Assembly: GCA_964579475.1 (NCBI GenBank)
Contig: CAZOFP010000001.1
Span: 19,421-83,420, forward strand
Direction of reading: 5' to 3'
DNA length: 64,000 nucleotides
From: an uncultured Candidatus Saccharibacteria bacterium
GTDB lineage: Bacteria > Patescibacteriota > Saccharimonadia > Saccharimonadales > CAYOYH01
Shown here in pieces: positions 3,021 through 36,696 of the stretch. The notes under the pieces were generated by a model. That model saw only the letters and a program-made list of their open reading frames with translations, did no database searches and was not told the origin of the DNA. Numbering within the stretch: position 1 is the first letter of the stretch; each line of letters starts with the position of its first letter. A program made the position numbers and the translations under genes.

Positions 3021-3557
3021 ATGAACGACACTATGCAAAAGTCTGGCTGGGCAGTCGGATTAGCAGGTTTGGCATCAATGACACTAGGAGTAGTGCTTTT
3101 GGTTTGGCCGGCACCAACACTTAACATCATGTTTACCGTGTTTGGTATATTTTCATTAATCTGGGGTATTATCCTCATAGTTGCTGCTATCGCCAATCGC
3201 GACGAAAGTGGCTTCTGGGCAATGCTTCTGCTGCTGGGCGTACTCAGCAGTTTATTTGGCTTGTTTCTACTTGGTGCCCCAGCATACGTAACAGGACTCA
3301 TCCTGTTACTTCTTATTGCTTTTCGTGCGCTAGTCATTGGTGCAATTGCACTGGTGCTTGGGATTCAGTCATTTAGTACCAAGTACAAGGAATGGTTCCT
3401 GCTGATATCTGGTATCGTTTCACTGCTGTTTGGGATGTACATCTTCGTGAACCCACAAGGTGGAGCTTTAGTTTCAGTACTAGCTATCTCAATCTACTTA
3501 ATAGTAGATGGTGGCTTCCTTCTTGCATCTGGTGTGTTTTCACACTCAAGCAAATAA
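3021..3557 (+). CDS. HdeD/DUF308-like multi-pass membrane protein
   Basis: About six short TM helices with repeated small-residue motifs typical of the DUF308/HdeD family. SD AGGAG upstream. Confidence 0.55.
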   Translation: MNDTMQKSGWAVGLAGLASMTLGVVLLVWPAPTLNIMFTVFGIFSLIWGIILIVAAIANRDESGFWAMLLLLGVLSSLFGLFLLGAPAYVTGLILLLLIAFRALVIGAIALVLGIQSFSTKYKEWFLLISGIVSLLFGMYIFVNPQGGALVSVLAISIYLIVDGGFLLASGVFSHSSK

Positions 3558-3583
3558 TTTCGATCTGCTCAGTCGAAATCAAA

Positions 3584-3614
3584 ATACACTCCCGCTCTGG
3601 GAGTGTATTTTATT
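3584..3614 (+). terminator. Intrinsic terminator (ATACACTCCC-gctct-GGGAGTGTAT then TTTATT)
   Basis: 10-bp perfect stem plus T-run just downstream of the 3021..3557 CDS. Confidence 0.6.
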
Positions 3615-3656
3615 CGTTGGAGTCGACATGGCTGTAGTATAATTAGTATCAAATAA

Positions 3657-4238
3657 TTGGATAAGCTAGTGCTTTTCGATATCGGCATAGGAATAATTAT
3701 TGGAATATTTTTTCACTCGACGAGTGATGTATTTACGCTTAGTACTTTTATCTCAATCAGCATAATGTTCTCTCTTTTGCCGGACATAGATTTCCCGATA
3801 CATTTCATGAGAGGCGGTACGTTTGAGGACGAGTACAAACACAGAAATCTACTTCACGTACCGCTACTACTCTGGCCTATTGGATCGCTCTTCTTGTATT
3901 TAGTTAGCCCAATACTGGTGCCAATGTTTCTCGTTGGCACGTTAATTCATTTTCTACATGACAGCATTGGTATTGGCTGGGGTATAAGGTGGCTGTATCC
4001 ATTCTCAAAAACGCACTATGCGTTTTTTTATCGCGTACGAACTGGTACCTTCACCGAGATTCCTAAACAACTGGTTTATGCTTGGACTCCAGAACAAGTG
4101 GATGAGTACGCTGAGGTGTATCATGACGAAGATTGGATTCGTAATATATATTTTAAGTGGCACCCCTACGCCATTGCAGAGGCTGCAGTATTCATTATCG
4201 CAATTCTTTATTTGATCAATTACAGTTCGGCTGGCTAG
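3657..4238 (+). CDS. Membrane-bound metal-dependent hydrolase-like protein (YdjM/DUF457-like), TTG start
   Basis: Polytopic membrane ORF with His-rich motifs (HFMRGG, HFLHDSIGIGWG). Family assignment is tentative. Confidence 0.45.
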   Translation: MDKLVLFDIGIGIIIGIFFHSTSDVFTLSTFISISIMFSLLPDIDFPIHFMRGGTFEDEYKHRNLLHVPLLLWPIGSLFLYLVSPILVPMFLVGTLIHFLHDSIGIGWGIRWLYPFSKTHYAFFYRVRTGTFTEIPKQLVYAWTPEQVDEYAEVYHDEDWIRNIYFKWHPYAIAEAAVFIIAILYLINYSSAG

Positions 4239-4786
4239 ATAGGTTCATCTTTAAGTTTAAGGAACCAGCCAATAACTGTGCTTATTGGATGCAACAACAA
4301 GCCCCAAATTATCGCCCAGGCGTACATGCTAACGGTGAAATCTGTGACTAACAAACTTAGCAATACAGCGCCGAGTATCCAGTCAATTTGGTCAAAAGGT
4401 GGCCAACTCTTACCCGGTTTTATATTTACCTGACGTTTGAAGAAACTCTCCAACGCATCACCACCTAGTGCACCAATAGTAAATATTAGCCCAAACAACC
4501 ATATGTTCACCGAACTATAATCGATGAATGAAAGCTCAAAGAAAAAGGTTGTATTTTGATAGAACCAAACTTGCAACGTCAGGACGATAAGAGCGCCAAA
4601 ATACCCTGCAATAAGACCCCTAAAAGTCTTGTGGTCGCCGAAGATTCGTTTATTGTTGAACGATTTACCGAAGTCCAGCGGTTTATCCAGCGGGTCAAGA
4701 AACTTAATCTTCTTAGCAAAAACTGGAAACATATTAGCTGTTCCAGCCGGCAGATAAAACCAAAGAGCGAACAAAATTTCGTTCAT
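4235..4786 (-). CDS. CDP-archaeol synthase-like protein (CarS / DUF46 family, CTP-transferase fold)
   Basis: Matches CarS hallmark blocks: N-terminal LPAGTAN...P.D.GK.F...R.FGD.KT.RG and C-terminal GD.LESFFKR...G...P.DQIDW; five TM segments. Confidence 0.7.
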   Translation of the reverse strand: MNEILFALWFYLPAGTANMFPVFAKKIKFLDPLDKPLDFGKSFNNKRIFGDHKTFRGLIAGYFGALIVLTLQVWFYQNTTFFFELSFIDYSSVNIWLFGLIFTIGALGGDALESFFKRQVNIKPGKSWPPFDQIDWILGAVLLSLLVTDFTVSMYAWAIIWGLLLHPISTVIGWFLKLKDEPI

Positions 4787-4826
4787 GTCTTCCTCATTTT
4801 ACTTGTGCTAATCATAGCATGTAAAT

Positions 4827-5369
4827 TTAGAGTTTGTACTCGACGACTTTACCATTTCGGATGACAGAAGTGAATGTTTCGAGTGTGGTTAAGTCGTTGA
4901 AATATCCTGCAAGAATTTGACCAGTGTTAGAATGGGCGACGATTAGTATTGAATCGCTTTTGTCATGCTTAACCTTCAAATCTTCTAGGAAGTCCGTGAC
5001 CCTTTGTTTGCTATCTAGGAGTGATTCACCGTCCCTGAATCTTTTTGAGTACCGGTCTTTTGTTAGGACGTAAGCTGCTGCTGCAAAGAACCAAGGTTTA
5101 CCGTTAAAGCCTGTCTTGTTATCGTTCAGTCTGGCATCGCTAGTAAGTTTTAGATTATGGTATTTGTTGATGATTTTTGCTGTCTCAATCGTTCGAGGCA
5201 ACGTCGATGTGTAGATGTGTGTCAAAGGAGTTTCTTTTAATTTCTCAGCAGCGGCTGCTGCCTGTCTTTTGCCTTTTTTGGTTAGTCTGACGTCAACACT
5301 TGGGTCGTCGTTCATGATGCCAAAGCGATTGTAAAATGTGTGCCCGTGGCGGACGAAGTAAATCCTCAT
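4827..5369 (-). CDS. Histidine phosphatase family protein (phosphoglycerate-mutase-like)
   Basis: N-terminal RHG motif (VRHGHTFYN) and a later His motif (VAHSNTG). 4-bp overlap with the upstream CDP-alcohol phosphatidyltransferase gene. Confidence 0.75.
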   Translation of the reverse strand: MRIYFVRHGHTFYNRFGIMNDDPSVDVRLTKKGKRQAAAAAEKLKETPLTHIYTSTLPRTIETAKIINKYHNLKLTSDARLNDNKTGFNGKPWFFAAAAYVLTKDRYSKRFRDGESLLDSKQRVTDFLEDLKVKHDKSDSILIVAHSNTGQILAGYFNDLTTLETFTSVIRNGKVVEYKL

Positions 5370-5989
5370 TCGTTTTTTGAAACCTTGGTTGAAATTGTGA
5401 GTAATCTATAGAACGCTGTCGCCCAAGAAAGTAGAGCGATTAACCAGATTACAGGTACAAGTAGATTGTTAAAAATGAGCCCGAAGACTAGAAGCGCTGT
5501 ACGCACCTCGTAGCGCATGAGTCCGGCTTGGAAGATGCGATTGATCTCCTGTGCATGGAGTGAGGAGCCCTTAAGGGCGGTCTCGCCTTTGGCTTTGATG
5601 TAACTTACGCTGTAGGCGCCTGTAATCGCTACAATTGTGGCCAGCACGGCCTTGGGGTTGTAGTCTAGTGCAAACCGATAAGCCAGCGCTGCAAAGACGA
5701 TACTTTCTTTCATGCGGTCTGTAGAAGCATCTAGAAGCATTCCGGCTTTACTGGCTCTACCCTGGACTCTTGCTAGCTCGCCGTCCAGACTATCCATTAG
5801 CCCAAATATCACCAATAAAATAGCACCAAGCAAGTATTGCTCGGCTACAATTGCAAAGAAAATTGGTACGTGTAGAACAAGAGAAGAAATAGTCACCTGG
5901 TTAGGAGTGATGGCACTATTTGAAATATTGTCTAACCACTTAGCGGCTAAGTGCATGCGAGATTTTGCAAATTTTCTTATACTATCCAT
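5366..5989 (-). CDS. CDP-alcohol phosphatidyltransferase (PgsA / archaetidyl-head-group synthase type)
   Basis: Exact CDP-OH-P-transferase motif D-G-x2-A-R-x8-G-x3-D-x3-D (DGELARVQGRASKAGMLLDASTD). The track ORF extends to 6133, but the Met at 5989 (MDSIRKF) avoids overlap with the divergent hydrolase gene. Confidence 0.8.
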   Translation of the reverse strand: MDSIRKFAKSRMHLAAKWLDNISNSAITPNQVTISSLVLHVPIFFAIVAEQYLLGAILLVIFGLMDSLDGELARVQGRASKAGMLLDASTDRMKESIVFAALAYRFALDYNPKAVLATIVAITGAYSVSYIKAKGETALKGSSLHAQEINRIFQAGLMRYEVRTALLVFGLIFNNLLVPVIWLIALLSWATAFYRLLTISTKVSKNE

Positions 5990-6047
5990 AACTTTAAAAC
6001 AGTATACTGGAAGCCAGAGATTCAGACTATTAAACTTTAGGGACAAC

Positions 6048-6977
6048 ATGCTCAAAATTCCAAAAAATGAACTTCTTCCGCTACGCATTGGGGGTATGAA
6101 CGGCAGATTATTAAAGATTGCAGCCAAGGACAATCAGGACGTTAACATATTGCTGGTTTATGGCGTTCATTCGTCAATGGAGCGTATGTATACGACCGCA
6201 AAATTTCACAGTCGATATGGGAGGGTTTGGATGCCTGATTTGCCTGGTTTTGGTGGTATGGATAGCTTTTACAAAATTGGTCGAGAACCTGACTTAGACA
6301 ACTACGCTGATTATCTATACACATTTATTCGAACATACAAACTAGACAAAAAGAAAATCCGTATCGTTGCTATGTCGTTCGGCTTTTTAGTCGTAACAAG
6401 AATGCTACAAAAATACCCACAACTCCATGACAATGTTGAGTTTGTTGTCAGCTTCGTTGGTTTTGGTAAAACTGAAGACTTCTCTGTCGATACATTCAAG
6501 AAACCAATTATTAAAATATCCCTCAGGCTAAGCAACACCAAGCTCGGCAGTTGGCTTATTGGCACACTACTATTTAATAAGGTTTCACTGAGAGTAATGT
6601 TTAAACTATTTCGTTTATTCAATCCAAACCCAAAGTATCGCCATGACTCCAAGCGCGAACAAGACCAAGCGGTTGAAATGGAGTTAGAGCTTTGGTCGAA
6701 CAACGATGCCAGAACAAAGTTTTACACCTACAAGGTTCTCTCTGATTTTGACCTTACGAAAGGTCAAAAGCCACTGCCACTAGATCTTTACGACATGGTT
6801 ACGCCAACAGATCAGTATTTTGACAGCGAATCAGTTAATAAGACCCTGTCGCAACTTTATCGTTCAAGTGAAATGTATATGGCTAATCTACGGCTTCACG
6901 CCCCAAGCGTTATTGGTGACGAAGAGGACGTAGCGAAAATCTATCCCGAAGCGATAAAGAAGATTTTAGCGAAGTGA
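6048..6977 (+). CDS. Alpha/beta-hydrolase fold protein (esterase/lipase-like)
   Basis: Only the distal part of track ORF 5712..6977 looks protein-like. The start is taken at ATG 6048 (MLKIPKNE). Nucleophile-elbow-like AMSFGFLV; length typical of alpha/beta hydrolases. Confidence 0.55.
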   Translation: MLKIPKNELLPLRIGGMNGRLLKIAAKDNQDVNILLVYGVHSSMERMYTTAKFHSRYGRVWMPDLPGFGGMDSFYKIGREPDLDNYADYLYTFIRTYKLDKKKIRIVAMSFGFLVVTRMLQKYPQLHDNVEFVVSFVGFGKTEDFSVDTFKKPIIKISLRLSNTKLGSWLIGTLLFNKVSLRVMFKLFRLFNPNPKYRHDSKREQDQAVEMELELWSNNDARTKFYTYKVLSDFDLTKGQKPLPLDLYDMVTPTDQYFDSESVNKTLSQLYRSSEMYMANLRLHAPSVIGDEEDVAKIYPEAIKKILAK

Positions 6978-6999
6978 CTTTGCTATACTTATTACCAAG

Positions 7000-8139
7000 A
7001 TGAAAATAGGTATAGTCTGTCCATACAATGTATTTAGACCCGGCGGTGTGCAGGAGGCTGTCTTTGCACATCAAAAAGAATTGATAGCACGTGGTTATGA
7101 AGTCACTATCATAACGCCAAACCCGAGACAAAATGACCGGCTTGCTCCAGAAGGTGTGCATTTAGTAGGCACTTCAACAGAACTCAATACTCCTTTTAGA
7201 ACCAAGGCGGACATCTCTTTGCATGCCGGCCCAAAAGAAATCTCCAAGTATCTTGAGGAGCAGAAATACGACCTACTTCACTTCCACGAACCCTGGGTGC
7301 CAATGCTTCCGAGACAAATTATCGACAAAGCCACCTGTCCGATAGTTGCAACTTTCCACGCCAAGCTTCCCGAAGCTTGGATATACAAAACTATTGGCAA
7401 AGCGGTTAAACCGTACACAAAGTCGTTCATTAAAGACATCGACTACATGGTTGCGGCATCAGAGCCAGCTGCGGATCATATTAACAGTCTGATAGATGGT
7501 AAGGTTCAGATAATCTACAATGGGGTCGACCTTACGAAGTATGATCCAGAGACGGTGCAGCCCCTCAAACAGTACATCGACGAAACGAAAACTATCCTTT
7601 TTATAAACCGACTAGAAAAGCGAAAAGGCCCAGATTGGATGCTAAAGGCCTACCGTCAGCTCGTGGAATCGCACGAAGACGTACGCCTGGTGATTGCTAG
7701 TGATGGCGACATGAGGAAAAGACTGGAATCGTATGTCAAAACATATGAGTTGCCAAATGTAGAGTTTCTTGGCTTTGTTGATGATGAAACGAAAGTTCGG
7801 TTGTACGCATCGGCAGACCTTTACTGCTCACCCGCCCCGTATGGCGAGGGCTTTGGCATAGTACTCCTCGAGGCCATGGCCATGCACACACCATATGTGG
7901 CTGGCGATAACGCCGGTTACAGGTTTGCAACTGGCGATAAATCTGACGAATATCTAGTTGACCCGACTAAACCTGCTCTGCTTGCAAAGCGTATTGAGAA
8001 ACTGCTCTACGATGAGGAAGCTAGAGTTGACTTCAAGAAATGGGCTAAAAAACGCGTACATACCTACGATTACAGAGTGGTGGTCGATGAGTATGAGACA
8101 ATATATAAAGATCTTATAAGGCGTGGGGACAAAAAATGA
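7000..8139 (+). CDS. Glycosyltransferase family 4 (PimA-like retaining GT)
   Basis: GT4 C-terminal signature EGFGIVLLEAMA and an N-terminal G-rich motif. Overlaps the next GT4 gene by 4 bp. Confidence 0.8.
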   Translation: MKIGIVCPYNVFRPGGVQEAVFAHQKELIARGYEVTIITPNPRQNDRLAPEGVHLVGTSTELNTPFRTKADISLHAGPKEISKYLEEQKYDLLHFHEPWVPMLPRQIIDKATCPIVATFHAKLPEAWIYKTIGKAVKPYTKSFIKDIDYMVAASEPAADHINSLIDGKVQIIYNGVDLTKYDPETVQPLKQYIDETKTILFINRLEKRKGPDWMLKAYRQLVESHEDVRLVIASDGDMRKRLESYVKTYELPNVEFLGFVDDETKVRLYASADLYCSPAPYGEGFGIVLLEAMAMHTPYVAGDNAGYRFATGDKSDEYLVDPTKPALLAKRIEKLLYDEEARVDFKKWAKKRVHTYDYRVVVDEYETIYKDLIRRGDKK

Positions 8140-9269: not shown

Positions 9270-10343
9270 ATGTCAATGAGGGTGAAACTAGATATCGAAA
9301 ACAGAACAATAATCCGTATTGCGGTACTAATTGCAGCGGTTTGGTTGACATTACAAATCTTCATTCAAATTCGGCATGCGCTTCTAATCATCTTGGTGTC
9401 TTTCTTCCTGGCCCTAGCCCTAAATCGGCCGGTTAACTACATAGCGTCACGTTTCACTAAAGGACTCGGGGGCAGAGGCTTGGCTACGGGTATAGCCTAT
9501 TTGGGCGTTTTGCTGGTAGTTGGTTCATTCGTCTATCTGACATTTCCACCAATAATCAACGAAACTACTGACCTAATCAACGCCATCCCAACAACAATAG
9601 AAAATGTTCGCGACAGTAGTAACGGCGGAGTAATAGCTGACTTCATAGATAAATATGATCTCCAAGATGAAGCCGACCAATTAGTCAAGGACGCCACCAA
9701 GGAACTAAGTGGTTTGGTATCACCAGTTGTTACAGGCGCCGGTAAGGTGGCTGGTGCAGTTGTGTCTGTTTTGACAGTACTAGTTCTAACCTTCTTCATG
9801 CTCATTGAGGGACCAACCTGGATGAAACGTTTCTGGTCATTTACGCCAAAAGACAAAGTAGAGCATAACAAGAAACTGGCTACCGAGATGCAAGGAGTAG
9901 TCACCGGTTTTGTTAATGGCCAGCTGATGATAGCACTACTAAGCGGGGTTTCGAGTCTTATCATGATGTTGATAGTTGGCCTGCCAAATCCTATCGCTCT
10001 GGCTGGCGTGGTGACAATGTTCGCTCTAATTCCAATGATTGGGACAATCATGGGGTCGATCATTGTGATTTTAGTAGCGCTTACCCAATCATTCGCAGCA
10101 GCCCTGATAATGTTAATCTTCTTCGTAGTTTATCAACAGATTGAAAACAACACCGCTCAGCCATTTATCCAGTCTAAAACACTTAATTTATCTCCGTTCT
10201 TGGTGCTGGCGGCAGTGGTTGTCGGTTTTTCACTCGGTGGAATACTAGGCGGTTTTCTAGCGATCCCAATAGTTGCAGCCGGCAGGATACTGCTAGAGGA
10301 TTATTTAAGGCAGCGAAAACTTATCGAGGACAAAAAGGTTTAA
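9270..10343 (+). CDS. AI-2E family transporter (PerM/YdiK-like, UPF0118)
   Basis: 8-TM topology and conserved blocks of the AI-2E family; the length fits. Confidence 0.75.
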   Translation: MSMRVKLDIENRTIIRIAVLIAAVWLTLQIFIQIRHALLIILVSFFLALALNRPVNYIASRFTKGLGGRGLATGIAYLGVLLVVGSFVYLTFPPIINETTDLINAIPTTIENVRDSSNGGVIADFIDKYDLQDEADQLVKDATKELSGLVSPVVTGAGKVAGAVVSVLTVLVLTFFMLIEGPTWMKRFWSFTPKDKVEHNKKLATEMQGVVTGFVNGQLMIALLSGVSSLIMMLIVGLPNPIALAGVVTMFALIPMIGTIMGSIIVILVALTQSFAAALIMLIFFVVYQQIENNTAQPFIQSKTLNLSPFLVLAAVVVGFSLGGILGGFLAIPIVAAGRILLEDYLRQRKLIEDKKV

Positions 10344-21187: not shown

Positions 21188-23560
21188 CTATTTCTTTTTC
21201 TTCGGAGTAGCCTGCTTTGAAATTTTCTCTAGTTGTTTGAGTTTGAACTGAGTATAGCGCTCCGCTGCCAAACGAGTCAGTTTTGGGTCCTCATCTTTGT
21301 TAACAAATTTCATCGATTCGGCAATCAGTGGGTGATGTTCGGCTAGGGTGTCGTGCATTTGCTTAACGAGTCTTCGATACCCTGGATGGCCCTGCGGTGT
21401 GGTGCGGAGTTCATGAAAATGAAATGCCTGTCGGGCGTTGTAGGTGACTTTCCAGCGCATTCGGTGACCCATGAGCGTGGCATACTGGGCTTCTTCCTCG
21501 TATCCAGCTGCCTGCATTTGGCTGTAGAGCTTGTAGCTCATATCGAAACATTTCTCGAAAAGCTCACTAAGACCAGCTTCTTCGACCAGTTCTGGAATTT
21601 CATAGCCGTACCTCGGTGTCAGCAATTGCCAGTTTAAATCGTCTACCATTCTATGGCGTTGTAGGTCGCGAAAAATTCCATAATCACACATTAAATCCCA
21701 GCTGTAGCGAGCTTGCTCCAGAGCGCGGCCAGGCTTATGCCTTCTGTTCAGCCGTTCACCAACGTAGGCTTTAAAGGCGGCCAACCTGTCTTCATAACTC
21801 CACTCGGCAACTTCGCGTTCAATTTCCCTGAGCGACAGGCTGGAATGCTCGTAAAGCATATTCGGCAGCAAATCCATTTCATTTTTAGGCCAAACTTCGT
21901 TGAGCATTACTGGGTTTGCCTCAGGACTCATGTTTGGCGACAGCTTTTCGTCGGCAATCTTTTTTACTGCCGCTTTGGTGTTGGCGCTATAGGCAATAGT
22001 CGCTCCGCCTCTGTCTGGCTTGTCGGCGCGTTCTAAAAATACAGGCACGACCTTTCTGGCCTCCTCTAGTAGTTTGTCGCCAGTTTCTCTAGCTTCTTGC
22101 ATGGTTTCGCCTTGGAGGTGCATGATTAAACTCTCTAGTGCCTGCCCCGAGGCATAGATACCGACTGTCGACTTAGTAGACACCGGCAACACTGGTCGAA
22201 TCGCATCGCAGGCTTGGGCACGGGTGGCTCCTTTCCAGGCGAAATCACGCTCTTTCTTTGGCACGTTTGAGTTTTTTCGGACGTAGTCGGTCAGTTCATG
22301 AACCATCTCTGAATACGTATCAAAAATCTTGTCCATTGTTTGCTCATAACTACGAGCGATTTTTGCATTAAGATTTTTCGGTGTGAAATATTTGTAGTTG
22401 CCCTTTTCATCTTTCTGATCGAAATATATATAGCGAGTTGATTGCTCAAGGTATGCCGCCAGTCTGCCCCACTCCAGCTTTTTAGTCAGCCAGTTTGATG
22501 CACCTTCGATGACAAAATGTATACCCGACAGCTGCTGTACGGAATCATCGCCGTAAGCTGTGATGACTCTTTTTAACAATCCTTCGTCCTTGCCAGCTTT
22601 ACCGGCAAACTCATCCAGAAGAGTCACCCGCATGTCGTCGCCACGCCTGCTGAGCCGTGCCATGGCAGCAGCAACAGTCACGTTAGACATCTTGTCAGTA
22701 AACACATAAACATTATCTTCTGTGTTGGTGACGGCATCGCTTAGGTACTCCCTACCCTCGTCAGTGATACTGAACGAGCCATTCTGGTTCTTCTTGATTA
22801 GTGGCGCATCGGTTGAAGGCTCGGCGTCTTCTTGTGCTTCGTTTTTCGAAAGTTTTTTCTCGCGGAGTATCTCTTTAAGGGATGCCGCCTGACTTTGTGA
22901 AGTTGATTCGTTAACTACCCTAGGTCTACTGTGCTGGCTCTTTAGAGCGTTGGAAACATGACTCCAGATGTCATCTGCTAGTGCCTCGACAGTTTTAGTG
23001 CCGTCAACTATTGGCAGTCCTCGGAGTTTAGCTTCCTTGAGTAGTCCATTTCGCTCTCTTTCCAAAAAATCTCTGGGGAGATTGTCGAATTTTTCGCCTT
23101 GGCCTCTGTTTTTGAGTCTCTTAAGTGATTCGTCGACTGGTATATCAATGATTACAATTAAGTCTGGCTCCATGTCGGCAACGGTAAACTTGATGATCTG
23201 ATTTATAGCCTCATAATCATCGATGTCCCCTCTACCATAGTATTGAACTGCAAGTGTCGTCAGGTAACTATGGTCAACTATGCAGCTTACACCACGGTTA
23301 GTCATGTTTTTAACAATATCGAGTGTTTGGGATCGGGCAGCGTTGTACAGAAGCACTTCGGTCTTAGTATTCATTGGATACCGTGGACTCTGGGTCATTG
23401 CACGAACCGTACGTGCAGTAAGATCGGTCTGACTGTCGGGCTCGCGCATCATCCGCACTGGAAGTCCGGCAGCCTGGAAGCGACGATTAAGTTCAACTAT
23501 TTGGGTAGATTTTCCTGTACCCTGCACACCTTGGATGACGACATAAAGGCCTTTATTCAT
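21188..23560 (-). CDS. Fusion protein: thymidylate kinase (N-terminus) + tandem-duplicated flavin-dependent thymidylate synthase ThyX-like domains
   Basis: N-terminus has Tmk P-loop (VIQGVQGTGKST), the REPDS block and a lid region. The C-terminal ~500 aa contain two ThyX-like repeats; the second carries the RHR motif (FRDLQRHRM...TPRY) and the first has it replaced (EWGRLAAYLEQSTRY). Start taken at the Met just before the P-loop (track ORF starts at 23602). Confidence 0.8.
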   Translation of the reverse strand: MNKGLYVVIQGVQGTGKSTQIVELNRRFQAAGLPVRMMREPDSQTDLTARTVRAMTQSPRYPMNTKTEVLLYNAARSQTLDIVKNMTNRGVSCIVDHSYLTTLAVQYYGRGDIDDYEAINQIIKFTVADMEPDLIVIIDIPVDESLKRLKNRGQGEKFDNLPRDFLERERNGLLKEAKLRGLPIVDGTKTVEALADDIWSHVSNALKSQHSRPRVVNESTSQSQAASLKEILREKKLSKNEAQEDAEPSTDAPLIKKNQNGSFSITDEGREYLSDAVTNTEDNVYVFTDKMSNVTVAAAMARLSRRGDDMRVTLLDEFAGKAGKDEGLLKRVITAYGDDSVQQLSGIHFVIEGASNWLTKKLEWGRLAAYLEQSTRYIYFDQKDEKGNYKYFTPKNLNAKIARSYEQTMDKIFDTYSEMVHELTDYVRKNSNVPKKERDFAWKGATRAQACDAIRPVLPVSTKSTVGIYASGQALESLIMHLQGETMQEARETGDKLLEEARKVVPVFLERADKPDRGGATIAYSANTKAAVKKIADEKLSPNMSPEANPVMLNEVWPKNEMDLLPNMLYEHSSLSLREIEREVAEWSYEDRLAAFKAYVGERLNRRHKPGRALEQARYSWDLMCDYGIFRDLQRHRMVDDLNWQLLTPRYGYEIPELVEEAGLSELFEKCFDMSYKLYSQMQAAGYEEEAQYATLMGHRMRWKVTYNARQAFHFHELRTTPQGHPGYRRLVKQMHDTLAEHHPLIAESMKFVNKDEDPKLTRLAAERYTQFKLKQLEKISKQATPKKKK

Positions 23561-24266
23561 CTTCAAGCTCTGGTATTGGTTTGGGCATCTCTCGACTGTC
23601 AAGATAAGATTTTGGCAGCATCTGATCGGGCGTCCAAGTCCTGATTATCGTATCTAGGTCAGTACCGCTCTGATATTTACCACTCATACCACCGTGTCTT
23701 CCGAGACCATAGCTACCATCAACCTCGCCAGTTTCGTGAAAAATAAGCTGTCCAACGCGCTCACCAACAGGCAGAACTATGCTTTCTGTTTTATTAAGGT
23801 TGTATATTTCTAGAGTAATTCGGTTAATGTACCCTGGGTCAATGAAGCCGGCATCAAAAGCAATGGCTATGCCGTTTCTGCCCATACTCGAGCGTGAATG
23901 CACAATGGCACAACCAGGTGGCTTTATACCAATGAACTCATGAGTGTGCCCAAGAATTCTTTCTTGAGGCCTGAGGACAACAATTGGTTGGTTTTCAGGG
24001 ATGCCTTTAAAAAGCTTCGCACCGTTTAAATCAGCCCATTGCCTGTGTTCAAGCGCTTGATATGGGCCATCGAAATACCTTTCGACATCTTCTCTGTCGT
24101 AGGGGTTGTAGGTGGTTCGCTCGTTAAGCTTTTCTGTTTTGTAATACCATTTACCGAGTGTGAAATCTAGACTAGCCTGTCCAATGTGTTTGGGATTGTG
24201 CGGAGTGCAAACGATACTGCCGTTCGCAATAGCATCTTCAATCTGTACATTACTATAAACGGCCAT
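23553..24266 (-). CDS. dCTP deaminase / dUTPase-superfamily protein (Dcd-like)
   Basis: Dcd family blocks SSMGRNGIAIAFDAGFIDPGY...LEIYN and GQLIFHE. Start taken at MAVYSNVQ. Confidence 0.75.
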   Translation of the reverse strand: MAVYSNVQIEDAIANGSIVCTPHNPKHIGQASLDFTLGKWYYKTEKLNERTTYNPYDREDVERYFDGPYQALEHRQWADLNGAKLFKGIPENQPIVVLRPQERILGHTHEFIGIKPPGCAIVHSRSSMGRNGIAIAFDAGFIDPGYINRITLEIYNLNKTESIVLPVGERVGQLIFHETGEVDGSYGLGRHGGMSGKYQSGTDLDTIIRTWTPDQMLPKSYLDSREMPKPIPELEDE

Positions 24267-34033: not shown

Positions 34034-34597
34034 TTATACTGTTTCAGTCACGAATTTATGAAAACTCTTAAAGGAGTTGGATTTATCTAAGGCCTTTTCA
34101 ATATTCAAATATTTCGCAAAGTCTTCATTATTCTTAGTCATAAAGTACTTTTCTTTTTGTGAACACTTGAACACTTGATCTTTAATTTTTCCTTTAGGGT
34201 CTTGGATGGTCTCTGGTAATCCAGAAAATTTAGGCATAAATTTTAGATTTAGAGACTTCTTGATACAGCCTGGATCACTGATAAACCAAGCCTCCAGTTC
34301 TTCAACTGGGATACAAATGTATCTGTTACCAAGCCTACTAGACGATAGAATACTCTCTAGCTCTGCCCTGACTCTGTCTTCACCGTTTGTCCCATCAAGG
34401 TCCTGCACAAGTATTAAAGCGCTGCAGCCTTGTGAGTGTAGAACATCAGCCCACATTAAACATTTCCGTTTGATATTGCCTTTTCCGTTTTTAGCGAACT
34501 CCCTGAAGCCTATACCGTTTTTATCAGATATTCTACGCACTAGAACTTCGATTGTGCTTGTGTCAGTCCTGTCTTCACCTATCAACCCAATGCGCAT
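34034..34597 (-). CDS. DUF4276/RloB-type Toprim-like small protein (partner of the adjacent ABC ATPase)
   Basis: N-terminal Toprim-like G-E-D (IGLIGEDRTD) and DxD (LVQDLDG), C-terminal EELEAW. Its ATG follows the upstream ATPase stop codon directly (no intergenic gap). Confidence 0.6.
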   Translation of the reverse strand: MRIGLIGEDRTDTSTIEVLVRRISDKNGIGFREFAKNGKGNIKRKCLMWADVLHSQGCSALILVQDLDGTNGEDRVRAELESILSSSRLGNRYICIPVEELEAWFISDPGCIKKSLNLKFMPKFSGLPETIQDPKGKIKDQVFKCSQKEKYFMTKNNEDFAKYLNIEKALDKSNSFKSFHKFVTETV

Positions 34598-34600
34598 TAC

Positions 34601-35809
34601 TTATTCGCTCCTAAAACCAGTTTCTCTCCAATAATCACCAAGGCTGCCTGTGTTCAAAAGGTATTCACGCAACGCGTTATGATCATTAGAATTTAGTTTC
34701 TTTTTCAATGAACTTGCACTAGTACCATTTGAGCCTTTACCAACTAACACAATTTGCTCGGGCTCAAGTTTATCTACTACATTATCGGAATGAGTGCTTA
34801 TTATCATTTGTTTTGTCTCTGCTTTCGATTCCACAAGCTCCATAACGCTGTTGATTAAACCGTGATGTACACCTATTTCGGGCTCTTCGATTAACAATAA
34901 TTCGTTGTTATTTCGAACTATATAGTAAACCAGTGCTAAAGTTTTTAAAGTTCCTTCAGAAAGCTGTGAAGGTGATAACTGTAGACCATCAATAGTAAAA
35001 GTGGGTATGACAATGTTGCGATCTATATCGATTTTTTCTATTCCGCCTCCTGGCTTCACCCTAATATTGCTATTGGGGACTGTGACATTTTGAAAATTAA
35101 TGTCTTCAATAAGCCCTATCCCTAGTGGGCCTACGGCGTTAATAAAAAGCTGGAACGACTTATCGTCACTCCTGCTCGAGTTATATATATCAAAAAGAAA
35201 TTTTCGATGTATGTTGGATTCTCCGTAACTTCTTGGAAGTTCACCATCTTCGATTTCTATTGATATTGGGCTGTCTGCAGGATTGGAGAAATGGGTTGCA
35301 CTGTAGTACCTAATACCAAAGAGGAATTCATTAAGCTTCGCTAAGAACTGGTTGATATCTTTTGAAGGAGTAAAGTACCTTTTCTTTAGACTTTCGGGGA
35401 TACTGTCATTCCCGAATTGTTGGATTACACTAAATGCTTGACTGCTGATCTCATGCCTCTTTTCATTAGTGCCCCCCATTTTCTTTACATGTAATTCTGA
35501 TACATCGATATCGTCCTGGTCGTATTGGTCAAAAAATATTTCTAGGAATAACCTATACGTATTGTCACCATCAGAAACGTCAGCTTCGATAAGTGATGAT
35601 GACAATGACTTAACTCCAGACCTCGGTGGACGTGCACGTCTATACCCTAGGCTGTAAATGCCTTTTTTGAGCAAGCCTATAGCAGCTAAAATATTAGTCT
35701 TTCCAGCACCGTTCCTCCCAATGAGAACTGTCGGATTTGTGCTAATTGCAAGTTTTGTGTCAATAAGAGATCTGTAGTTCTCGATTCTAATTTGAGTAAG
35801 CTTTAACAT
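34601..35809 (-). CDS. ABC-type/SMC-like ATPase of the AAA_21/OLD-AbiL-PARIS class
   Basis: Walker A GRNGAGKTN near the N-terminus; distal Walker B LLLIEEPE and H-loop (HH/STHS). Confidence 0.75.
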   Translation of the reverse strand: MLKLTQIRIENYRSLIDTKLAISTNPTVLIGRNGAGKTNILAAIGLLKKGIYSLGYRRARPPRSGVKSLSSSLIEADVSDGDNTYRLFLEIFFDQYDQDDIDVSELHVKKMGGTNEKRHEISSQAFSVIQQFGNDSIPESLKKRYFTPSKDINQFLAKLNEFLFGIRYYSATHFSNPADSPISIEIEDGELPRSYGESNIHRKFLFDIYNSSRSDDKSFQLFINAVGPLGIGLIEDINFQNVTVPNSNIRVKPGGGIEKIDIDRNIVIPTFTIDGLQLSPSQLSEGTLKTLALVYYIVRNNNELLLIEEPEIGVHHGLINSVMELVESKAETKQMIISTHSDNVVDKLEPEQIVLVGKGSNGTSASSLKKKLNSNDHNALREYLLNTGSLGDYWRETGFRSE

Positions 35810-36619: not shown

Positions 36620-36696
36620 TGGCAGGGGTGGAGGGACTTGAACCCGCGACCTTCGGTTTTGGAGACCGACGCTCTAGCCAGCTGAGCTACACCCCT
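36620..36696 (-). tRNA. trnW: tRNA-Trp (anticodon CCA), CCA encoded
   Basis: Cloverleaf by hand-folding: acceptor AGGGGTG/CACCCCT, D-arm GCTC...GAGC, anticodon stem TCGGT/ACCGA with loop CTCCAAA, T-loop TTCAAGT. One C-U mismatch in the T-stem. Confidence 0.8.

Follow-up and report, generated by a model that had tools for sequence, protein, structure and literature searches.

A CarS-family operon of a Candidatus Saccharibacteria bacterium and its predicted role in phosphatidylinositol synthesis

Gene content of the locus

We analysed a stretch of 64,000 nucleotides (the window) from an uncultured Candidatus Saccharibacteria bacterium (contig CAZOFP010000001.1 of assembly GCA_964579475.1, positions 19,421 to 83,420 of the forward strand). 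The genes considered here form two divergent transcription units (Table 1). One unit comprises three genes encoding a CDP-alcohol phosphatidyltransferase, a histidine phosphatase and a protein related to CarS, the CDP-archaeol synthase of archaea. The other encodes an alpha/beta-hydrolase, two GT4 glycosyltransferases and a membrane transporter. All three co-directional genes described in a first-pass annotation, which had been made from the sequence alone, are present at the locus, their Pfam E values lying well outside the range of chance. The stop codon of the transferase gene and the start codon of the phosphatase gene overlap as ATGA, and the two GT4 genes overlap by 4 nt. Mechanically, the open reading frame of the transferase extends to a TTG at 6133; because its orthologs measure 193-205 aa, the start was set to 5989.

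Table 1. Features of the CarS-like operon and of the divergent transcription unit (PIP, phosphatidylinositol phosphate; AIP, archaetidylinositol phosphate)
Feature	Position	Strand	Basis
CarS-family CTP:lipid-phosphate cytidylyltransferase (predicted), 183 aa	4235-4786	minus	PF01864
Spacer of 40 nt with GAGGA ribosome-binding site for the CarS-like gene	4787-4826	minus	sequence read
Histidine phosphatase (His_Phos_1, branch 1), 180 aa	4827-5369	minus	PF00300
Class I CDP-alcohol phosphatidyltransferase, PIP/AIP-synthase-like, 207 aa from ATG	5366-5989	minus	PF01066
Divergent intergenic gap of 58 nt separating the two transcription units	5990-6047		
Alpha/beta-hydrolase, 309 aa, ATG at 6048	6048-6977	plus	weak Pfam matches
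GT4 glycosyltransferase 1, PimA-like, 379 aa	7000-8139	plus	Glycos_transf_1, 136.7 bits
GT4 glycosyltransferase 2, PimA-like, 370 aa	8136-9248	plus	Glycos_transf_1, 114.2 bits
AI-2E family membrane transporter, last gene of the divergent unit	9270-10343	plus	PF01594, 183.7 bits

The CarS-like protein and its family

The CarS-like protein matched the Pfam family PF01864 with 98.1 bits (E 7.5e-28) from residue 3 to residue 181 of 183; the cutoff of this family, as of PF01066, is 22 bits. A weak match to PF01148, the CdsA family, ran across the signature region. By sequence, the sole relative of solved structure is CarS of Aeropyrum pernix (ApCarS, PDB 5GUF, E 1.1e-12). The same structure was the top Foldseek match (TM-score 0.71/0.81, root-mean-square deviation 2.9, 30% identity) of an AlphaFold (AF2) model computed from 33 homologs, for which a predicted local distance difference test score (pLDDT) of 91.3 was obtained. 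CdsA of Thermotoga (TmCdsA) followed as a distant second with TM-scores of 0.41-0.49. The bacterial family has twenty conserved positions, including the core of ApCarS, in common with a diverse set of 24 archaeal CarS; D38, R47, T54, D110, S114, K117, R118, D132 and Q133 are among them. Since these 20 core positions are kept in both groups, the catalytic machinery of the CarS-like protein is intact. According to the model, the protein has the CarS fold of five transmembrane helices with a conserved CTP/Mg-binding core. Among the residues separating CarS-like proteins from archaeal CarS only F131/L121, Q72, Y155 and S127/P117 were consistent. These four are too few to indicate lipid specificity, and lineage-specific residues were dropped as a guide to it.

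Proteins of this kind are numerous. We found 891 matches at 90% clustering, 1563 clusters at 50% identity (E<=1e-3) and at least 535 loci in a collection with one genome per species. Most records belong to Saccharibacteria/Saccharimonadia, further ones to Dojkabacteria/WS6, Levy- and Roizmanbacteria and Parcubacteria. In a distance-based neighbour-joining tree, calculated without outgroup, 36 Patescibacterial sequences and 24 archaeal CarS (Thermoprotei, Aig-, Thor-, Verstraete-, Mars- and Micrarchaeota, Methanobacteria) split into two groups in 100 of 100 bootstraps. This separate Patescibacterial clade speaks against the proposal of the first-pass annotation that the gene is of archaeal type and may have been acquired horizontally. 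Judged from the sequences, the CarS family has long had a bacterial branch, to which the CarS-like proteins belong, and the gene is no recent import into this genome. The term "archaeal-type" denotes membership of the CarS family here and is not evidence of archaeal lipids or recent transfer, and the name "CDP-archaeol synthase" given to these genes in public annotation is probably a functional over-call. A literature search for bacterial CarS-like proteins together with Saccharibacteria, the candidate phyla radiation (CPR) or inositol gave nothing specific, and no analysis of the operon was found. CarS was not among the genes analysed by Coleman 2019, and the haloarchaeal three-gene operon around HVO_1297 has a different arrangement.

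Six contigs carrying CarS-like genes that nest in the Patescibacterial clade are labelled Woesearchaeota, Gammaproteobacteria or Limnocylindria (L079, L012, L018, L025, L086, L051). L051 has typical Saccharibacteria synteny despite its label. Mis-binning of metagenome-assembled genomes or mislabelling is the likely cause of these labels.

In the window, a gene for a YdjM-family membrane protein (3657-4238, plus strand) converges on the CarS-like gene, the 3' ends overlapping by 4 nt. A YdjM-family protein and a DUF308 protein are kept at this position in L001 and L090. Upstream of the CarS-like gene we noticed a promoter-like sequence, TTTACA-18-TAAAAT (10 of 12 matches; 4796-4825, minus strand), which may be an internal promoter. 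A promoter scan of 3400-7200 gave no signal over shuffled sequences, the region holding even fewer promoter-like sites than these, and the terminator-like matches in the same region fall inside genes.

Conserved gene order and the position of the phosphatase

Gene order was compared in 80 species-level loci and several metagenomic ones. A transferase homolog lies at most 4 kb from the CarS-like gene in 67 of the 80 loci, and in about 40 the order transferase, gene of about 215 aa, CarS-like gene is found on a single strand. The middle gene in most relatives is not a histidine phosphatase gene but encodes a PHP-domain phosphoesterase (PF02811/PF13263), whose gene immediately precedes the CarS-like gene in 46-54 of the 80 loci. 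These short phosphoesterases (about 215 aa, e.g. L092:6351-7004, L013:9327-10001 and L008:9334-10005) have no specific NCBIfam family and are candidate PIP (or phosphatidylglycerophosphate, PGP) phosphatases of a new type. The histidine phosphatase occupies this slot solely in the clade of the window (L001, L007, L089, L090 and L091; 59-99% identity of the CarS-like proteins). Here the genes for CysRS, the AI-2E transporter, both GT4 enzymes and the alpha/beta-hydrolase lie on one strand and those for the transferase, the histidine phosphatase and the CarS-like protein on the other, the transporter having the same position in L089, L090 and L091. The next group out (57% identity) still shows transferase, PHP phosphoesterase and CarS-like protein. 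In other lineages, a HAD hydrolase adjoins the pair of transferase and CarS-like genes.

Furthermore, the CarS-like domain occurs in single-polypeptide fusions with PAP2 (P0369), with the PAP2-like DUF212 (P0285) and with the CDP-OH transferase (P0267 and P0292, cluster representatives). All four fusion proteins (loci L087, L088) are encoded on short metagenomic contigs. The first-pass annotation had suggested a route of lipid activation, head-group transfer and dephosphorylation. This three-step logic holds, because transferase and cytidylyltransferase adjoin or are fused and the slot takes several unrelated phosphatase families.

Three further families recur near the operon. The gene for myo-inositol-1-phosphate synthase (MIPS; PF01658, 121.9 bits) adjoins it in seven of the 80 loci (L030, L046, L066, L069, L071, L082, L086). 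A lipid kinase gene of the DAGK_cat family is divergently adjacent in 11 (L020, L021, L032, L053, L058, L063, L064, L069, L075, L080, L085). Between them, these two neighbours would provide the pathway with its two substrates. A PIG-L family deacetylase (GlcNAc-PI de-N-acetylase / MshB family) was found near the operon in nine loci. The PIG-L gene stands beside the CarS-like gene in L023, L037, L044, L051, L054 and L083; other cases are L050, L074, L061 and L092:10195-10944, and a SIS/PGI-like gene often accompanies it. To judge from these neighbours, some Saccharibacteria may have a GlcN-inositol chemistry of a GPI-like or mycothiol-like kind. In loci of the Dojkabacteria/WS6 type (L014, L027, L034, L043, L065, L081), the transferase and PHP genes give way to a conserved gene, encoding about 310 aa without Pfam match, that immediately precedes the CarS-like gene.

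The phosphatase of the window showed 111.9 bits with PF00300 (E 4e-32), and its catalytic set R7, H8, R59, D83 and H146 is invariant in 14 homologs, which bears out its earlier description as a histidine phosphatase. The family is narrow (20 matches), and homologs with at least 54% identity share contigs with CarS-like genes. The enzyme looks to have been recruited from a soluble paralog, replacing the PHP protein. From its position and this replacement, we predict it to be a PIP phosphatase removing the head-group phosphate. According to the PgsA1 structure paper of 2019, the PIP phosphatase of mycobacteria was still unidentified. The one bacterial PIP phosphatase found in the literature, BT_1525 of Bacteroides (described in a preprint), is annotated as PgpA; a His_Phos or PHP protein with this function would therefore be of a new type.

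The transferase and its head group

The transferase matched PF01066 with 55.9 bits (E 8.4e-15). Its sequence DGELARVQGRASKAGMLLDASTD contains the motif D-G-x2-A-R-x8-G-x3-D-x3-D exactly as first described, and the equivalents of D68, D71, D89 and D93 are invariant in the orthologs. The best NCBIfam models were AIP synthase (AIPS; 104.4 bits, cutoff 180) and PIP synthase (PIPS; 84.6 bits, cutoff 170), and the model of BT_1523 gave 51 bits. The best match in the PDB was PgsA1 of M. tuberculosis (6H53, E 8.7e-13). All five matches there (PgsA1, other PIP synthases, AF2299 and DIPP synthase) are users of inositol phosphate. In the PgsA1 structure (2019), phosphate and inositol are bound by R94, S132, R155 and R195, of which R94 is typical of inositol-phosphate users. 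The window protein has the equivalents of all four residues, as do 49-51 of 51 orthologs encoded on the same strand; at the R155 column the phmmer and MAFFT alignments differ, with Arg present in both. The first-pass annotation had named glycerol or inositol as head group. Inositol phosphate is favoured because of the PIP/AIP synthase matches, the binding residues, the seven loci with MIPS, the nine loci with a PIG-L deacetylase and the PimA-like GT4 neighbours. To judge from the sequence, it is the most likely head group, glycerol phosphate being less so.

The divergent unit

An alpha/beta-hydrolase gene and two genes for PimA-like GT4 enzymes were found in the divergent unit, as the first-pass annotation had reported. 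By sequence, both GT4 proteins are like the phosphatidylinositol mannosyltransferase PimA. GT4 glycosyltransferase 1 matched PimA (4N9W/2GEJ) over its full length (E 5e-44, 154 bits), the next solved GT4 structure following at E 6.5e-16. For GT4 glycosyltransferase 2, PimA was again the best match in the PDB (E 1.5e-30), ahead of the next structure (6e-12) and of PimB' (3OKA, 2e-11). No curated PimA model was among the NCBIfam matches of the two proteins.

The alpha/beta-hydrolase showed weak matches to Hydrolase_4 and Abhydrolase_1 in Pfam (E about 2e-3) and to OlsI in NCBIfam; the best E value in a profile search of the PDB was 0.015. A candidate triad of S114 (AMSFG motif), D259 and H288, numbered from an alignment start at 6036, is invariant in 4 orthologs, and the gene is syntenic within the clade of the window. 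A single-sequence AF2 model, with a pLDDT of 43.4, was too poor for use. The protein may act in lipid acyl transfer or as a lipase.

The lipid substrate

Genes of the UbiA or PcrB type did not recur at distances of up to 4 kb from the CarS-like gene (81 loci), and none was seen in the window. Likewise, no GGGPS, DGGGPS or G1P dehydrogenase was seen in the 64-kb window or the 20-kb loci. A loose regular expression for the UbiA motif was discarded after it had matched only the CDP-OH transferases themselves. The CdsA signature PxHGGxxDR was not found by regular expression in 1.48 Mb; by chance sampling only about 1-2 occurrences were to be expected there, which gives this search little power.

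Only acylglycerols were reported among the intact polar lipids of a size fraction dominated by CPR. With these published data and no GGGPS/DGGGPS-type genes recurring nearby, the unusual lipid chemistry considered in the first-pass annotation loses its ground. Patescibacteria are reported to have no lipid synthesis and to rely on their hosts, which are Actinomycetia in the case of Saccharibacteria. For a soil Saccharibacterium, Starr 2018 predicted a phosphatidate cytidylyltransferase leading via CDP-diacylglycerol to phosphatidylinositol (PI) and PI-mannosides (PIM). The published Tn-seq tables of Southlakia epibionticum, which are possibly incomplete, contain no PF01864, PF01148, PF01553 or PF02660. 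Its single CDP-alcohol transferase, SEML1_0297, is non-essential. This oral organism thus appears to be without the module and is uninformative on essentiality here. The most economical reading is that the CarS-like enzyme would serve these bacteria as functional CDP-diacylglycerol synthase, in the manner of CdsA.

Proposed pathway and alternative explanations

We propose that the locus is a Saccharibacterial island for the synthesis of PI and PIM-like glycolipids, built on a three-gene core widespread among the Patescibacteria in which the phosphatase was exchanged in a lineage-specific manner (probability about 0.6). The CarS-family membrane enzyme would use CTP to turn a lipid phosphate into a CDP-activated lipid, which is the task of CdsA elsewhere. 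Its substrate would most likely be phosphatidic acid derived from scavenged host diacylglycerol or phospholipid. The PIP-synthase-like transferase would then join the activated lipid with myo-inositol phosphate to phosphatidylinositol phosphate, a step well supported by its sequence. The histidine phosphatase, as its position suggests, would strip off the head-group phosphate and convert PIP to PI. Finally, the products of the divergent unit may glycosylate PI, and perhaps acylate or export it, yielding PIM-like glycolipids resembling those of the Actinobacteria that host Saccharibacteria. The wider claim that the bacterial CarS branch uses phosphatidic acid, so that the lipid divide is not mirrored in the split of CarS and CdsA, and that PHP and His_Phos proteins are unrecognised PIP phosphatases, is given an even chance by us.

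Several observations weigh against the proposed island. The CarS-like protein, taken for CarS in the first-pass annotation, scored 127.5 bits with NF003114, the NCBIfam equivalog for CDP-2,3-bis-(O-geranylgeranyl)-sn-glycerol synthase, and lies under the cutoff of 148; the assignment thus stands for the Pfam family but not for the equivalog. The transferase is also under both of its equivalog cutoffs. According to a review on CarS, the enzyme of A. fulgidus strongly prefers digeranylgeranylglyceryl phosphate (DGGGP) over phosphatidic acid and fails to complement E. coli cdsA, and crude-membrane data suggest that geranylgeranyl chains outweigh the ether or ester linkage or the stereochemistry. 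Given this preference for DGGGP, activity of the CarS-like protein on an acyl lipid is an assumption. Homologs of MIPS, DAG kinase and PHP are absent from the 64-kb window, MIPS being adjacent in just seven of the 80 relatives, and glycerol phosphate is the suspected substrate of an AIPS-like enzyme in haloarchaea. Homologs of the histidine phosphatase with 46% and 38% identity have genes standing by themselves, beside enolase/S2 or BacA.

The selectivity of characterised CarS for geranylgeranyl lipids, together with the fold and conserved core of the CarS-like protein, the higher score of the AIP synthase model compared to the bacterial PIPS model and the GGGPS and DGGGPS homologs reported from one Parcubacteria genome, would suit a true archaeal chemistry, the stronger reading of the first-pass annotation. 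The CarS-like protein would then activate DGGGP or archaetidic acid, the transferase would make archaetidylinositol phosphate, and the membrane would be mixed or archaeal-like. We regard this as very unlikely: the bacterial clade stands apart from all sampled archaeal CarS with the window protein below the equivalog cutoff, UbiA- and PcrB-like families do not recur around the gene (4 kb, 81 loci) and are not seen in the window, the recurrent neighbour is a lipid kinase of DAG-kinase type, and both the acylglycerols of the CPR size fraction and the reported lack of lipid synthesis pathways in Patescibacteria point the other way. That Patescibacterial CarS proteins activate isoprenoid or ether lipid phosphates, scavenged from neighbouring archaea or formed via unrecognised enzymes, and give archaetidylinositol-like lipids is likewise highly improbable; if true, it would mean that the lipid divide is crossed in nature over a huge radiation. 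The CarS/CdsA superfamily includes CTP-dependent kinases. Hence, and in view of the weak PF01148 match, a CTP-dependent lipid kinase comparable to dolichol and phytol kinases might be considered instead of a cytidylyltransferase. The nearest match in fold and sequence is CarS itself, with a shared core, and the conserved and sometimes fused partner requires a CDP-activated donor. The kinase reading was rejected on account of this partner and has hardly any likelihood left.

Glycerol-3-phosphate as head group would make of the same module a PGP synthase and a PGP phosphatase producing phosphatidylglycerol, the universal bacterial lipid. The haloarchaeal enzyme mentioned above, the sub-cutoff scores of the transferase with the PIPS and AIPS models and the 73 of 80 related loci without adjacent MIPS, together with its absence from the window, fit such a module. 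So do the PAP2-type fusions, which recall PgpB-like PGP phosphatases. The pgsA models, however, reached 22-27 bits with the transferase compared to 85-104 for PIPS and AIPS, and no PgsA structure was matched at E<0.01 whereas five inositol-phosphate transferases were. Moreover, the Arg and Ser residues that bind inositol phosphate show no variation, the adjacent gene for head-group supply is MIPS where present, and PimA-like GT4 enzymes adjoin. Phosphatidylglycerol synthesis is therefore an unlikely function of the locus. With CarS-like protein and transferase acting as proposed, the histidine phosphatase could still be an unrelated housekeeping enzyme (PhoE- or PGAM-like), dephosphorylation taking place elsewhere or not at all. 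Its NCBIfam matches (ribazole phosphatase, dPGM, PspA) are generic and below cutoff, the homologs at 38-46% identity stand alone in unrelated contexts, and in some loci the transferase directly adjoins the CarS-like gene with no phosphatase between them. The exact PHP position and the ATGA overlap with the transferase gene argue for a function in the pathway, as do the lack of any remaining PHP homolog in the window, the retention of the histidine phosphatase in all five clade members examined (59-99% CarS identity) and the other phosphatase families independently fused to or adjoining the CarS-like protein. An unrelated role is conceivable but doubtful.

Comparison with known systems

Among the closest known counterparts of the proposed island is the mycobacterial PI/PIM pathway consisting of CdsA, PgsA1, a PIP phosphatase, PimA and PimB'. 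The transferase is closest to PgsA1 and keeps its binding residues, a phosphorylated intermediate needing a phosphatase would be formed, the two GT4 proteins are closest to PimA, and the synthase is clustered with glycosyltransferases and a putative acyl-handling gene. The mycobacterial arrangement pgsA1-Rv2611c-pimA is presumably similar to the cluster in the window. Differences concern the activating enzyme, which is of the CarS type with 5 transmembrane helices instead of CdsA, and the candidate phosphatase, which is encoded in the operon whereas the mycobacterial one was unidentified as of 2019. Furthermore, there is an alpha/beta-hydrolase where mycobacteria have an LPLAT-type acyltransferase, and the organism of the window is apparently unable to make its own fatty acids.

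With the archaeal route via CarS and AIP synthase, the locus shares the CarS fold and core, AIP synthase as the top NCBIfam model and the same three-step logic. It differs in its separate bacterial clade, in both proteins being below the equivalog cutoffs and in the lack of ether-lipid core genes seen nearby, and its lipid is probably diacyl. In Bacteroides thetaiotaomicron, a PIP synthase (BT_1523) and a dedicated phosphatase (BT_1525) are also clustered, together with MIPS (BT_1526), which joins the operon in some Patescibacterial loci, too. BT_1525 is of the annotated PgpA type in contrast to the candidates here (His_Phos_1 or PHP) and in other lineages (HAD, PAP2 or DUF212), and the characterised genes given for that cluster include no cytidylyltransferase. 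CdsA (PF01148) belongs to the same superfamily as the CarS-like protein and catalyses the reaction proposed for it, in keeping with the weak PF01148 and Foldseek TmCdsA matches; architecture and sequence of the window protein are nevertheless CarS-like, with TM-scores of 0.41-0.49 to CdsA compared to 0.71-0.81 to ApCarS.

Other features of the window

The remaining window contains housekeeping genes, including a ribosomal protein operon and genes for SecY, RpoA, DnaB, DnaX, CysRS, RecR and glycogen enzymes. The closest proteins in the databases bear the names of Saccharibacteria or Saccharimonadales. The GC content of the window is about 0.45. Its lowest value, 0.38, was found at 34034-35809 beside tRNA-Trp (36620-36696). 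This stretch encodes a protein of 402 aa, whose N-terminus has by eye the look of an AAA/OLD-like ATPase, and a partner of 187 aa; it is possibly a small defence or mobile islet. An open reading frame of 804 aa (21188-23602) has, also by eye, a thymidylate-kinase-like N-terminus with a GxGKST P-loop, apparently fused to a ThyX-like region with an RHR motif. It is followed by a gene which by eye is dCTP-deaminase-like.

Biological significance

The operon, as proposed here, is a variation on the known PI pathway, and the pathway itself had already been predicted for a Saccharibacterium (Starr 2018). The locus shows which steps are kept by Patescibacteria supposedly free of lipid synthesis: the re-activation of a scavenged backbone and the addition of an inositol head group and of host-like sugars would be among them. 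The interchangeable phosphatase slot (PHP, His_Phos, HAD, PAP2) yields concrete candidates for PIP phosphatases. If CarS-type enzymes of these bacteria make CDP-diacylglycerol, a family supposed to be an archaeal marker would include many bacterial members that act on the lipids of bacteria, and this would affect the reading of CarS matches in metagenomes as well as arguments on the lipid divide.

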